55,913 bases of DNA from a virus. Lineage: Duplodnaviria > Heunggongvirae > Uroviricota > Caudoviricetes. The stretch lies in the IMG/VR virus record IMGVR_UViG_2778261121_000001, positions 1-55,913 of that record. One strand, given 5' to 3'. The notes beneath the pieces were generated by a model. The model saw nothing but the letters and a program-made list of their open reading frames with translations. It made no database searches and was not told the DNA's origin. Positions 1,586 through 9,478 of this stretch are shown here, one piece after another. A program made the position numbers and the translations under genes. Numbering within the stretch: position 1 is the first letter of the stretch; the number at the start of each line of letters is the position of its first letter.

Positions 1586-3619
1586 TTACTTAACTTGGTG
1601 GCCTGGTTTAGCACCAGCATCCGGGCTTAACAGGAAGATATCTTTCCCACCGGGGCCAGCAGCCATCACCATACCTTCGGAGATACCGAAGCGCATTTTA
1701 CGCGGAGCCAGGTTAGCCACCATAATGGTGTGACGACCAATCAGTGCCTGTGGGTCTGGATAAGCAGAACGGATGCCTGAGAAGACATTGCGTTTTTCAC
1801 CACCTAGATCCAGCGTCAGACGCAGCAGTTTGTCAGAACCTTCAACAAACTCTGCGTTTTCAATCAGCGCCACGCGCAGGTCAACTTTGGCGAAGTCGTC
1901 AAAGGTGATAGTTTCCTGAATCGGGTCGTCAGCCAGTGGGCCAGTTACCGGTGCGGCTGTGGCTTTCACTTCTTCTTTGGATGCTTCCACCAGTGCTTCA
2001 ACCTGCTTCATATCGATGCGGTTATACAGTGCCTTGAACGGATTCACTTTATGGCCCAGCAACGGTTGCTGGATGCCATCCCAGGTCAGTTCTGTATTCA
2101 GGAATGCTTCTGCACGTTCAGTCAGTTTCGGCAGTACCGGCTTCAGGTACGTCATCAGCACGCGGAACAGGTTAATGCCCATAGAGCAAATCGCCTGCAG
2201 ATCGGCATCGCGTCCTTCCTGCTTCGCCACCACCCACGGAGCCTGTTCATCGACATAGCGGTTAGCCAGGTCAGCCAATGCCATGATTTCACGGATAGCT
2301 TTACCAAATTCACGGCTTTCCCATGCTTCGCCAATCACTTCAGCGGCATCAGTAAAGGTTTTGTACAGTTGCGGGTCAGCCAGTTCGCTTGCCAGCACGC
2401 CGTCAAAACGCTTGTTGATAAAGCCTGCATTACGGGAGGCCAGGTTAACCACTTTGTTCACGATATCGGCATTCACGCGCTGAACGAAATCCTCCAGGTT
2501 GAGATCGATATCATCAATGCGCGAAGAGAGTTTCGCAGTGTAGTAGTAACGCAGGCTGTCAGCGTCAAAATGATTCAGCCAGGTGCTGGCTTTAATAAAG
2601 GTGCCGCGAGACTTGGACATCTTCGCGCCGTTCACCGTCACATAGCCGTGAACAAACAGGTTGGTCGGCTTGCGGAAGTTGCTGCCTTCCAGCATGGCAG
2701 GCCAGAACAGGCTGTGGAAGTAAACAATATCTTTACCGATGAAGTGGTACAGCTCGGCGGTGGAGTCTTTCTTCCAGTATTCATCGAAGCTGGTGGTATC
2801 GCCGCGCTTGTCGCACAGATTCTTGAAGGAACCCATGTAGCCAATCGGCGCGTCCAGCCAGACGTAGAAATATTTGCCCGGCGCGTTCGGAATTTCAAAA
2901 CCGAAGTAAGGCGCATCGCGGGAGATATCCCACTGTTGCAGGCCGGATTCAAACCACTCCTGCATTTTATTTGCCACCTGCTCCTGCAACGCACCGCTGC
3001 GGGTCCATGCCTGCAACATTTCGCTGAAAGAAGGCAGATCAAAGAAGAAGTGTTCGGAATCACGCATTACCGGGGTAGCGCCAGAAACCACCGATTTCGG
3101 CTCGATCAATTCAGTCGGGCTATATGTTGCGCCGCAGACTTCACAGTTATCGCCGTATTGATCTGGCGCTTTACATTTCGGGCAGGTGCCTTTTACAAAA
3201 CGATCCGGCAGGAACATGCCTTTTTCCGGGTCGTACAACTGAGAGATAGTGCGGTTTTTAATAAAACCGTTCTCTTTCAGGCGAGTATAGATAAGCTCAG
3301 ACAACTGACGGTTCTCTTCGCTGTGCGTCGAGTGATAGTTGTCATAGCTGATGTTAAAGCCTGCGAAATCAGTCTGGTGTTCCTGACTCATTTCGCCAAT
3401 CATCTGCTCCGGTGTGATACCAAGCTGCTGTGCTTTCAGCATGATCGGCGTACCGTGGGCATCGTCGGCACAGATGAAATTAACCTCGTGGCCGCGCATT
3501 CGCTGGTAACGAACCCAGACATCAGCCTGGATGTGCTCCAGCATATGGCCGAGGTGGATTGAGCCGTTAGCGTACGGCAGCGCGCACGTCACCAGAATTT
3601 TCTTCGCGACTTGGGTCAT
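1586..3619 (-). CDS. metG: methionine--tRNA ligase
   Basis: Translation from [29 protein letters not shown] to the C-terminus matches E. coli MetG almost residue for residue; start set at the MTQ methionine rather than the longer track ORF. Confidence 0.95.
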
Positions 3620-3776
3620 AGTAGGCATTACTTCTTTGTAGTGAAAAGGGGCTTGATAGTAACAAAATGGCCTTATGTCTGCCATGTGATAACAGCATTT
3701 CTCATAAATGATTAAATGTCGTAGCTGGAGTACACTACAAGGCGACAATTGCGCAAATTAAAATAAAGGAGACGGG

Positions 3777-4877
3777 ATGAGCGAGTCCAAATCGCCGGAT
3801 GCCCTGAGAGCAATGGTAGCCGGTACGCTGGCTAATTTTCAGCACCCAACCCTGAAACACAACCTGACTACGCTTAAAGCGTTACACCATGTTGCGTTGA
3901 TGGATGACACACTGCATGTCGAACTAATCATGCCTTTCGTGTGGAATAAGCCTTTTGAAGACCTGAAAGAGCAATGTAGTGGTGATCTGCTCCGTATCAC
4001 TGGCGCAAAGGCTATTGACTGGAAGCTGTCGTACAACATTGCCACGCTTAAGCGCGTCAAAAACCAACCAGGCATTAATGGCGTTAAGAATATTATCGCC
4101 GTAAGCTCAGGCAAGGGCGGTGTAGGCAAATCGTCCACAGCAGTAAACTTGGCACTGGCGTTGGCTGCTGAAGGTGCGAAAGTTGGTATTTTGGATGCCG
4201 ATATCTACGGGCCATCAATTCCAACCATGCTGGGCGCGGAAAACCAACGTCCAACCTCACCAGACGGTACTCACATGGCACCTATTATGTCTCATGGCCT
4301 GGCAACCAATTCTATTGGTTATCTGGTCACCGACGACAATGCGATGGTGTGGCGTGGACCGATGGCTAGCAAGGCGCTGATGCAGATGTTGCAGGAAACA
4401 CTGTGGCCTGATCTGGACTATCTCGTTCTCGATATGCCGCCGGGCACTGGTGATATTCAATTGACGCTGGCGCAGAACATTCCTGTAACGGGTGCTGTGG
4501 TGGTAACTACGCCGCAAGATATCGCGCTGATCGATGCGAAGAAAGGCATTGTGATGTTCGAAAAAGTCGAAGTGCCGGTACTGGGTATCGTCGAAAACAT
4601 GAGTGTGCATATTTGCAGTAACTGCGGTCATCACGAGCCAATTTTCGGCACCGGTGGCGCAGAGAAACTGGCCGAGAAATACAACACGCAGTTGTTAGGC
4701 CAAATGCCACTTCATATCTCACTTCGTGAAGATCTGGATAACGGAACACCAACCGTTATTAGTCGTCCAGATAGCGAATTTACGGCTATTTATCGTGACC
4801 TCGCAGATCGCGTTGCTGCCCAAATGTATTGGCAAGGTGAAGTAATACCTGGCGAAATCGCATTCCGCGCAGTGTGA
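3777..4877 (+). CDS. apbC: iron-sulfur cluster carrier ATPase ApbC/Mrp
   Basis: Walker A SSGKGGVGKSS plus CxxC near the C-terminus; strong similarity to E. coli Mrp; divergent from metG as in enterobacterial chromosomes. Confidence 0.93.
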   Translation: MSESKSPDALRAMVAGTLANFQHPTLKHNLTTLKALHHVALMDDTLHVELIMPFVWNKPFEDLKEQCSGDLLRITGAKAIDWKLSYNIATLKRVKNQPGINGVKNIIAVSSGKGGVGKSSTAVNLALALAAEGAKVGILDADIYGPSIPTMLGAENQRPTSPDGTHMAPIMSHGLATNSIGYLVTDDNAMVWRGPMASKALMQMLQETLWPDLDYLVLDMPPGTGDIQLTLAQNIPVTGAVVVTTPQDIALIDAKKGIVMFEKVEVPVLGIVENMSVHICSNCGHHEPIFGTGGAEKLAEKYNTQLLGQMPLHISLREDLDNGTPTVISRPDSEFTAIYRDLADRVAAQMYWQGEVIPGEIAFRAV

Positions 4878-4914
4878 TAAAAAGGCGGTGCATTGCACCG
4901 CCTAATCAGTTCTC

Positions 4915-5304
4915 CTACATCACGGGACAATCATCAAACTCGCCACTTCTTGCGTCGTTGATAATGTGAGTGATCACACCAAACACGGCATTGCTGCCCG
5001 TGCATCCATCGTCATCCTTTGGCAATGCTTCCTTCTTACCGGTTCTTAAATCCTCCAGATGCTGACGTGGGTACTTCCGGTATCTTTTTACGCGATATTC
5101 CCCATCCAGAGCGCATACAAGCAGAGAACCATCAACCGGGGTAAGTGAGGAATCGACCACCAGCAATGCACCCTGTAATATTCCCTCACGATGATGACTA
5201 TCAGCTGCCCTCATGAAGTAGGTCGCTGAAGGATGTCTAATTATCTGCTGATCAAGAGAAATACGGCTCTCAGCATAATCCGCCGCAGGAGAAGGGAAGC
5301 CCAT
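4915..5304 (-). CDS. UmuD'-like protein (pre-processed UmuD homolog, HumD-like)
   Basis: Begins GFPSPAADY, the position of the UmuD autocleavage product, and aligns with the UmuD C-terminal domain; LexA box immediately upstream. Confidence 0.7.
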   Translation of the reverse strand: MGFPSPAADYAESRISLDQQIIRHPSATYFMRAADSHHREGILQGALLVVDSSLTPVDGSLLVCALDGEYRVKRYRKYPRQHLEDLRTGKKEALPKDDDGCTGSNAVFGVITHIINDARSGEFDDCPVM

Positions 5305-7421: not shown

Positions 7422-7606
7422 TAGGCAGCTCTCTCAACAACAAGCAATTCGTCGTAGTCATAATCAGTTTCGGAACCATCCGTACCGAACAGAGTCACTT
7501 TGTCATCTTCCATCCAAAAAGATTTAACCGCACATTGTTGACCTTTAGATGTTATGAGCACATCACCAGGGATTACGTCTTCAGCGCGAACTTCTAGTGT
7601 TCTCAT
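7421..7606 (-). CDS. hypothetical protein (61 aa)
   Basis: ORF in track, stop/start overlap with neighbours. Confidence 0.4.
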   Translation of the reverse strand: MRTLEVRAEDVIPGDVLITSKGQQCAVKSFWMEDDKVTLFGTDGSETDYDYDELLVVERAA

Positions 7607-8133
7607 CGTGCTGACCCCTCTTTGGTTAAAATGCCTGCTGCAATGCTGTTTATGATGCTGTCAGTGCATGGAGTAGAAAGCTGGGCATCTCCAGCAATTT
7701 TCATGACCTCAACATCCGCATATCGAATACCGAGGTGTATCAGACCGGCTATACCTGACTTAAGTCGAACATTTTCCATAAACAGATCTTTTTCCCGCTG
7801 TTTAGCGGCTTCCAACTCCATCGACAATTTTTCCAACTGCTCTTTATGCTTCTTGTATTCCTGATACGCGTGCCAAGACTGACCTTTGCGCACACTATCA
7901 GTGATATCAGCAACCTGCTCTGGTGTTAGCGTGGTCAGTGGCTGTGCTGGAAAAATCATCACTTGCCCGGCATCCCAATCAAAACCAGCCTGAATTGACT
8001 GAACCTCAACTGATGGTGTTGAACCGATGCGACCAGGCGAATGAACAACGATCGTTACATCCATATCTCGACGATGGCTGTGGTTGTTGGACAAAATACG
8101 ATTCACCAACTCAGAAAATTTGGAAAATTTCAT
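7603..8133 (-). CDS. hypothetical protein (176 aa from the MKFSKF start)
   Basis: ATG at 8131-8133 with GAGGG Shine-Dalgarno and ATGA overlap with the upstream stop; the longer track ORF to 8262 would overlap the upstream gene. Confidence 0.45.
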
Positions 8134-8453
8134 GTTGATCCCTCTTTCTCTCCCCGGATAATTCTGTTGCACACATCCACACACTCGTCGCAGATGAAAA
8201 CGGCGTCCCCAGCAATTAACTTTTTGACGGCGTACTGGGATTTGTTGCAGAAGCTGCAACAAAGTGTTCGCCTGACTGATAAGGATGGAGCGCCAGATGT
8301 CAGCCGCTCCATATCGTTCTTGCGACGCAATATCACACGGCTGAACTCAACCAGTTTCTCCGGGGATATCTCCTCCTCCGTAGCGAGCGTCTCTAGTCGT
8401 TCGAGTATGTTGAAGGCTTTTTCCTGGGTAATAGCAGAATGCGATGTGGTCAT
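8130..8453 (-). CDS. small protein with a ClpX-type C4 zinc-binding domain
   Basis: [34 protein letters not shown] closely resembles the ClpX N-terminal zinc-binding domain; start set at the MTTSHS ATG with AAGGAG Shine-Dalgarno. Confidence 0.55.
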
Positions 8454-8454
8454 C

Positions 8455-9177
8455 TCACTCTCCTTTGATGCGAATGCCAGCGGCGCGGGAATCATTCCAT
8501 CGCTTTACTTCTTCACGAATTACGTCAATGCATTCTTTCGAATCCATTAGGTAATCTTCATCAAAAAGACGTTCCTGTTCGTTTTCTATCGCAACAATGA
8601 TTGCTTCAACTAACTTTTGTGCCTGAGAACCACTTTCTAACTCTGCTATGCGCTTACTTCCATCCGCGATTACTCCCTCGTAATATTCACGCTGCTCGTT
8701 GAGTTTTGATTTTGCGGCTTCCAACGCCGCAACCAATTCGTCTACAGTTCCGGCAGCTTGCAGTGCGTAATCGGTAATAGACATCTCATGATCAATTTCA
8801 GTACCGTTCTCATTAGTTGAGGTGATAGCAAAATAATCAGAGTCGATTTCGTTATCAGCTAAGTGGCGTAGCGTATCGGCAACAAGCTGACCGTTTTCGA
8901 TTAACAGCTTCCCTACCGTTAGCGCAATATCCTCGTTCTCCTGGTCGCGAGATTTGATGTATTGCTGGTTTCTTTCCCGTTCATCCAGTAGCGCCAGCAC
9001 GGTTTCTGGTCCGGCCAGAATTTTGAAGGCGTTGAGCGCATCAATATCAACACCGCTATCTTTAAGTTCCTGCTCGCTTATCAGATCATCATCAACTGGC
9101 AACATTAACAGGCGTTCCATTGCCGGAATTGCACGCTCTGCCGCCTCACGCAGTGCCTGATAGTTAATTTTGGTCAT
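8455..9177 (-). CDS. hypothetical acidic protein (240 aa)
   Basis: ORF in track. Confidence 0.5.
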
Positions 9178-9178
9178 A

Positions 9179-9478
9179 TCACATCACCCTGAATCCGTTG
9201 CATTTACGTAAAAAATCGCAGATATAGCCCTTCATTTTTTCGTGCCAATCTCGATCATTCCCATTGCACCAACCATCAGGTGGAGTCCAGTTTTCTATCA
9301 GAGCAGCCATTTTCTTTGCTTTTGCAGGAGTAGCTGTTGCGGTATCGCAGTAATGACGAGTGTCGATCAACGTATCCATACCATCGATATCAAGTACGCA
9401 AAACCATGTGTGATTCGGCATTTCAACAGATGGTATTTGTTGCCCACGTCGACGTTTATCAATAAGACATACAGTCAC
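9179..9478 (-). CDS. hypothetical protein (99 aa)
   Basis: ORF in track. Confidence 0.45.
   Translation of the reverse strand: MTVCLIDKRRRGQQIPSVEMPNHTWFCVLDIDGMDTLIDTRHYCDTATATPAKAKKMAALIENWTPPDGWCNGNDRDWHEKMKGYICDFLRKCNGFRVM

Follow-up and report, generated by a model that had tools for sequence, protein, structure and literature searches.

A phage protein family that joins a ClpX-type zinc-binding domain to a helical hairpin of its own: a candidate modulator of host ClpXP

The protease ClpXP controls sigma-S, the SOS mutagenesis proteins, lambda O, MuA, antitoxins such as P1 Phd and ssrA-tagged proteins, mostly via ClpX's zinc-binding domain (ZBD; PMC7226468, PMC7804408). What, then, is a domain of this type doing in a small gene of a temperate element? 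The question is raised by a 55,913-nt stretch of DNA (the window) that is part of an Escherichia coli phage-plasmid of the SSU5-like kind (~106-109 kb). A preliminary description had placed a small gene encoding a ClpX-type ZBD at 8130-8453 without stating its strand; this observation is real by Pfam, phmmer and fold, and the gene lies on the minus strand. The window sequence and its ORF translation give a 107-aa ORF that runs from ATG (8453..8451) to TGA (8132..8130).

8130..8453, minus strand: coding sequence of the ZBD protein (107 aa; stop codon 8130..8132 counted in), 100% identical to RefSeq WP_022644963.1
8460..8465, minus strand: Shine-Dalgarno sequence AAGGAG, 6 nt 5' of ATG 8453, as read from the sequence

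In the cluster with the most members (P0001; 73 sequences), automatic gene calling settled on a longer ORF of 121 aa that begins at ATG 8495; this start falls within the Ea22-like gene upstream and is preceded by no ribosome-binding site. We prefer ATG 8453, which is also the RefSeq choice, because of the AAGGAG 6 nt ahead of it. The stop codon of the Ea22-like gene lies 1 nt before this ATG, and the stop of the ZBD gene overlaps the start of the downstream gene as ATGA; with both junctions this tight, the ZBD gene is packed in a polycistronic block. A pattern scan of the minus strand found no sigma-70-like promoter or terminator adjoining the gene.

The encoded protein is divided as follows.

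8298..8426, minus strand: family-specific helical hairpin, residues 10-52 (helices 10-25 and 31-52), from the alignment and the AF2 model
8271..8297, minus strand: Ser/Ala/Pro-rich linker, residues 53-61, modelled with low confidence (pLDDT <50 at 57-60)
8148..8270, minus strand: ClpX-type C4 ZBD (treble clef), residues 62-102, from Pfam, phmmer and AF2/Foldseek
8256-8258, 8247-8249, 8190-8192 and 8181-8183, minus strand: codons of the ZBD cysteines C66, C69, C88 and C91

Judged from its sequence and its predicted fold, the C-terminal half is a genuine ClpX-type ZBD, with a match far beyond chance. Pfam zf-C4_ClpX (PF06689; curated gathering threshold 27 bits) matches at residues 65-100, with a score of 57.5 bits (E=1.2e-15). 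By phmmer, the best matches among PDB sequences are all ClpX, the top ones being the isolated E. coli ZBD (2DS5, 1OVX; E=1e-14), and residues 62-102 align gap-free to ClpX 10-50 with 28/41 identities (68%) to the E. coli protein. C66, C69, C88 and C91 align with ClpX C14, C17, C36 and C39 at the identical spacing CxxC-x18-CxxC, and all four are invariant in 29/29 non-redundant family ZBDs. In the AF2 model (25 family members in the alignment; mean pLDDT 76), helices 10-25 and 31-52 and a disordered linker (~53-63) precede a ZBD built of a beta-hairpin and a C-terminal helix (pLDDT ~80-85), which matches the ClpX ZBD crystal structures 2DS5-2DS8 with an rmsd of 0.7-1.0 Å over 38 residues; the Foldseek search of the PDB gave no match with E<0.5 other than ClpX ZBD structures. 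The claim that the C-terminal part resembles ClpX's N-terminal ZBD is thus borne out by profile, identity and fold alike, and the cysteine spacing, on which the preliminary description had let its assignment depend, is that of ClpX, with a predicted fold to match. The stated size of the domain needs amending, from 35 residues to ~40, with a tail of 5 residues behind it.

The protein is not ClpX: it is 107 aa long, and the NCBIfam ClpX unfoldase models (TIGR00382 / PRK05342), whose cut-offs are 359-371 bits, score it at 39-42 bits and match it at model positions 4-48 only, with no AAA+ module after the ZBD. The ZBD is its sole Pfam or NCBIfam match, and no homology to the known adaptors and anti-adaptors SspB, RssB and IraD/M/P was found; the Ead_Ea22 profile (PF13935) does not match it either. 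The ZBD assignment is already in public annotation, as WP_022644963.1 carries the product name 'ClpX C4-type zinc finger protein'. An older name, 'carboxylate--amine ligase', is widespread on family entries, including those of phages P88 and D6, and appears to be a propagated mis-annotation with no sequence support. The new elements are a hairpin that is fused to the ZBD and confined to this family, and the systematic change of the ZBD surface; a literature search for a characterised free-standing or phage-encoded ClpX-type ZBD found no relevant study.

We compared that surface in 29 non-redundant family ZBDs and 21 ClpX ZBDs, the ClpX sample being biased and made up mostly of metagenomic fragments. 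In ClpX numbering, the zinc ligands are invariant and L12, S15, F16, K19, I28, G30, V33, I35, D37, E38, V40, C43, N44 and I47 are kept in both sets; K19, Q21, D37, E38 and N44 are among the many polar surface residues that the family retains. Within the hydrophobic pocket, F16 (F68 of the protein) is invariant and I46 (I98) is I or V in 26/29 family ZBDs. In contrast, P31 in the hairpin turn is P in 19/21 ClpX ZBDs and D/E in 26/29 family members, the acidic positions 23 and 45 of ClpX have become A/T and R/N/S/E, respectively, and the net charge of the ZBD is +1 in the window protein vs -2 in E. coli ClpX. The most variable positions (42, 45, 46 and 49) occupy one face of the C-terminal helix. 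Because the polar rim is systematically changed (P31, 23 and 45), the domain, by this comparison, keeps the core and the pocket and is not an exact surface mimic of ClpX; the earlier statement that it closely mimics the ClpX ZBD fits the fold, the cysteines and the F16/I46 pocket and fails at the rim. The changed rim could also weaken the binding of basic XB-type motifs.

The domain is also not the 'free-standing copy' it had been taken for, as it is always joined, on its N-terminal side, to a conserved helical hairpin specific to this family. The hairpin has its own invariant charged residues in the family alignment (E11, R19, E21, E26, E27, R44 and D47) and, in its second helix, an RR(K/E)K patch that is conserved; the N-domain is net acidic. 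It belongs to no family in a Pfam search and has no structural match in the PDB by Foldseek. A profile built on residues 1-61, when run against 1.84 billion representative proteins, returned only its own family, copies that are truncated or frameshifted, and noise from low-complexity sequence; neither a word-indexed search nor this exhaustive profile search found N-domain homologues in other architectures. Within the reach of these searches, the hairpin exists only fused to this ZBD, which implies that both domains work together. A 79-aa variant (P0028) has the same linker and ZBD on a wholly different N-terminus (MESMAEGMIKDLVASGHALADDM...), and shows a ZBD module that was evidently shuffled between N-terminal partners.

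The family has a defined range. Copies of the gene with 100% identity occur in pECAZ162_2 and in numerous further plasmids, and the protein is 97-99% identical in phages PhiR41_1 and CMS-2020a; PhiR41_1, whose copy is the 97% one, infects E. coli MG1655. Full-length relatives (63-100% identity) occur in Escherichia and Salmonella only, and a branch further off, at 50% identity, comprises P88 gp19 (from a P2-like phage) and its many relatives in prophages, with both domains conserved across the family. PHROG 6797, a family with no annotated function, matches at full length (E=6.5e-58; residues 1-105 vs profile 1-105 of 107). By blastn, a DNA-level relative of the ZBD-coding sequence is present in 220/5426 complete E. 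coli genomes (~4%), where the carriers are mostly phage-plasmids and P2-like prophages of clinical lineages.

This same search never matched the host clpX. Compared codon by codon, the ZBD gene and clpX share 63% nucleotide identity, third positions within identical residues are 39-53% identical (saturated), and the serine codon classes differ, which together with the blastn result rules out a recent capture from host clpX. Family members nevertheless keep 60-78% amino-acid identity to the ClpX ZBD, and deeper within-family comparisons give dN/dS ~0.2-0.4 in both domains. Taken together, the amino-acid identity, the saturated third positions and the dN/dS values indicate that the ClpX-like sequence is old and maintained by selection; by the same measures, both domains are under purifying selection and the acquisition is an old one. 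Between the window and phage D6 (5001..5321), the N-domain DNA is near-identical (dS 0.03) and 10/41 ZBD-region residues differ with dN >= dS. This contrast suggests either recombination at the linker (domain-level mosaicism) or diversifying change in the ZBD.

Four types of temperate element carry the gene: SSU5-like phage-plasmids (the window, L016 and L017), the P1-like phage-plasmid D6, P2-like prophages and a P22-like integrated prophage (L015). The neighbours in the window are the following.

7603..8133, minus strand: 176-aa gene with no assigned function (PHROG 6026/368, Ea22-related mosaic), downstream; other phages do not have it as a conserved neighbour
8455..9177, minus strand: Ead/Ea22-like gene (PF13935, E=5e-32), directly upstream
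9179..9478, minus strand: DUF7739 gene, a member of the trio DUF7739, Ea22-like, ZBD

The trio recurs in the P22-like prophage (L015) and in another SSU5-like element (L016), and an Ea22-like gene adjoins the ZBD gene or stands one gene off in every context examined, Ea22-like genes being very common in such regions. In the P22-like prophage, the gene follows ral, cIII, kil, a Rad52-type recombinase gene, ssb and abc2 in a pL-type operon, an order that makes its earlier placement among unknown early genes reasonable; cIII is an FtsH inhibitor. In the P2-like prophages, it lies in the variable region that separates gpA from the portal gene, directly after ParM/ParR. The immediate neighbours thus vary and only the Ea22-like gene is recurrent, from which we take the gene to behave as a mobile single-gene accessory function.

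Other readings of this context fell away. A conserved partner or two-gene system is rejected, as the downstream gene encodes 176 aa in the window, 112 aa in P88 and DUF4752 in D6, and differs again in the P2-like prophages. A restriction to plasmid-type prophages, which the SSU5-like, P1-like and ParM/ParR contexts had suggested, is contradicted by the P22-like integrated prophage. A role as a defence-system component is unsupported, even though the P2-like carriers use the gpA-portal variable region: the PADLOC-DB defence HMMs matched neither the ZBD protein nor the four neighbouring proteins. Two further observations concern the carriers themselves. In the P88-type P2-like prophages (L003, L007-L014; one in an ST131 chromosome), the parM/parR-like segregation genes directly upstream are unusual for integrated P2-like phages. 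Elsewhere in the window, 1586..5304 (by correspondence with L001 2116..5834) encodes a methionyl-tRNA synthetase (full-length metG), an apbC/Mrp Fe-S carrier and a UmuD-like S24 peptidase. UmuD/UmuD' are ZBD-dependent ClpXP clients, and the co-residence of the peptidase gene and the ZBD gene on one phage-plasmid may be of interest.

ClpX-type ZBDs without ClpX occur beyond this family. In the T4-like lytic Caulobacter phage Cr30 (NC_025422), a small ORF at 2522..2761 (plus strand; <=79 aa from a TTG) encodes a free-standing ClpX-type ZBD, of which RefSeq has only a 126-nt piece (gp170). It looks like an independently acquired phage ZBD. Caulobacter, the host of Cr30, depends heavily on ClpX N-domain adaptors. 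Among metagenomic proteins, a ZBD is joined to a second CxxC...CxxC ribbon (P0031, P0033, P0035, P0044, P0048, P0066, P0069, P0074, P0076, P0077, P0102 and P0105), to a ~130-aa helical domain (P0038, P0067 and P0088), to a membrane anchor (P0047 and P0099) or to an HTH-like tail (P0058); to our knowledge, none of these non-ClpX architectures has a characterised function. Most metagenomic 'stand-alone' ZBD matches are truncated or frameshifted true ClpX and were left out as relatives.

What could such a protein do? Isolated ClpX ZBD folds and dimerises alone and is the docking site of adaptors and some substrates (PMC9035409), and its residues F16 and I46 form the hydrophobic pocket for lambda O, SspB, RssB and trigger factor (PMC7804408). 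In vitro, purified ZBD supplied in trans at 5-20 µM (vs 0.6 µM ClpXP) inhibits the degradation of sigma-S that depends on RssB (PMC7226468), and, as engineered XB-peptide degraders illustrate, tethering a protein to the ZBD can alone suffice for its degradation (PMC12373786). From these facts and the anatomy of the protein, we infer an action in trans on the network of the ClpX N-domain that changes the substrate choice of ClpXP, a reading to which we give a probability of about 0.4, with the partners and the effect on proteolysis as its conjectural parts. The phage ZBD would pair with the host ClpX ZBD or occupy ligands such as SspB, RssB, UmuD and lambda-O-type or MuA-type substrates, the hairpin would add a second, specific contact that provides specificity or avidity, and ClpXP degradation would be altered while the accessory operon is expressed, for example by stabilising a phage/plasmid-maintenance protein or a host regulator.

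We count for this action on the ClpX network a genuine ZBD with F16/I46 kept, a ClpX-like sequence held by selection, an obligatorily fused hairpin, an operon shared with the host-takeover functions cIII, kil and abc2 in the P22-like prophage, the independent ZBD ORF of Cr30, and the dimerisation and inhibition in trans of isolated ClpX ZBD (PMC9035409, PMC7226468). Against it, we count the non-ClpX-like polar rim, the 5-20 µM of free ZBD needed in vitro and the presence of ZBDs in other non-ClpX proteins; since these occur in several architectures, the domain alone is no proof of action on ClpX. The preliminary description had proposed titration of, or heterodimerisation with, ClpX, which on the present sequence comparisons is plausible but incomplete: with a hairpin always fused to the domain, a plain titration model leaves part of the protein out. 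A sharper form of the proposed ClpX-network action would make the protein a viral copy of a protease docking domain, one that pairs or competes with the N-domain of ClpX and leaves it to the fused hairpin to block or retarget ClpXP, and the charge changes of the family (P31 to D/E, position 45 to R/N/S) would then tune hetero-pairing or ligand choice. In this full form, we regard the proposal as unlikely.

The main rival holds that the ZBD is a mere compact, zinc-stabilised dimerisation or peptide-binding module and that the activity resides in the hairpin and is unrelated to ClpX, for instance as a modulator of the lysis-lysogeny decision or of host physiology like the exo-xis/ea-region proteins. 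It is a serious possibility, if still short of probable. The many non-ClpX proteins that fuse a ZBD to unrelated modules (second ribbon, ~130-aa helical domain, membrane anchor, HTH-like tail) show the kind of use that it supposes, and the many invariant charged surface residues of the hairpin, together with the divergence of the ZBD polar surface from ClpX, point the same way, as do the Ea22-like neighbours, given that lambda Ea22 is reported to be pro-lysogenic (PMC7093339, PMC10834534). A scaffold would not, however, appear to need all that selection has preserved here: the F16 and I46 pocket and K19, Q21, D37, E38 and N44 are kept under purifying selection, and the domain is unusually near ClpX itself, at 68-78% identity.

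If the ZBD does engage ClpX, its purpose could also be delivery, in that it heterodimerises with the ClpX ZBD and tethers the hairpin, and a host protein bound by the hairpin, to ClpXP for destruction, as a natural analogue of engineered tethering degraders. The bait-linker-anchor layout resembles the logic of the XB-peptide degraders (PMC12373786), the hairpin's fusion to the ZBD is obligatory, most of the variation falls at helix positions 42, 45, 46 and 49 and at the tip of the hairpin, and the ZBD differs between near-identical N-domains (window vs D6). Such a hijacking adaptor nevertheless rests on both a putative target and a putative heterodimer with the constitutive ClpX ZBD dimer, and conservation of the N-domain is above what would be expected of bait in an arms race; we consider it decidedly improbable. 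The least likely reading, a nucleic-acid-binding zinc-finger regulator comparable to the small phage proteins Mu Com and lambda Ea8.5, could appeal to the slightly basic window ZBD (+1), to the RR(K/E)K patch in helix 2 and to treble-clef fingers that can bind nucleic acids (PMC4999995, PMC6483171), but its nearest relatives by sequence and fold are all ClpX ZBDs, which are protein binders, the N-domain is net acidic, and no HTH or known nucleic-acid-binding family matched in Pfam or NCBIfam, so that we hold it to be very remote.

How does the ZBD protein compare with known systems? It shares with the E. coli ClpX ZBD the C4 treble clef, the spacing of the cysteines, 68% of the 41 aligned residues and the F16/I46 pocket; unlike the N-terminal domain of ClpX, the phage ZBD is C-terminal and has no AAA+ motor, its P31 has turned to D/E, its acidic positions 23/45 are lost and its net charge is reversed, and its DNA is not a recent clpX copy. 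Phages modulate host AAA+ proteases through lambda cIII (FtsH), lambda RexB (ClpXP substrates), and T4 PinA and T7 Gp4.5 (Lon). Like these, the ZBD protein is small and accessory, sits in an early or accessory operon (with cIII in one prophage) and has a proposed effect on host proteolysis; the differences are that profile searches found no sequence relationship to them and that the effect proposed here is inferred. We know of none among cIII, RexB, PinA and Gp4.5 that copies the docking domain of the protease itself. The other stand-alone ZBD proteins (the 65-aa PHROG 12435 profile named 'protease', the Cr30 ORF and the bacterial proteins with a second ribbon) likewise have a ZBD without an AAA+ module, but they have no helical hairpin. 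A parallel in logic is offered by two free-standing homologues of the host protein DksA, lambda Orf73 and TraR of the F plasmid (PMC9239242): a small phage protein from an accessory region is a stand-alone version of a host regulator that acts on the target of its host partner, as is proposed for the ZBD protein, whereas the host system is RNA polymerase rather than ClpXP and Orf73 is functionally characterised.

If the ZBD is only a scaffold, this would be an ordinary accessory gene. An effect on ClpX, if demonstrated, would make the finding one of high interest. Should the protein functionally copy the docking domain, it would represent a new type of protease modulator and a compact natural tool to block or redirect ClpXP, of relevance to targeted protein degradation in bacteria (PMC12373786), and, given that ~4% of complete E. 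coli genomes have a relative, its physiological effect could be widespread. If pairing or competition with the ClpX N-domain proves true, the protein would be the first case in nature of a ZBD that acts in trans, and would mark a new route by which phages and phage-plasmids reprogramme host proteolysis.
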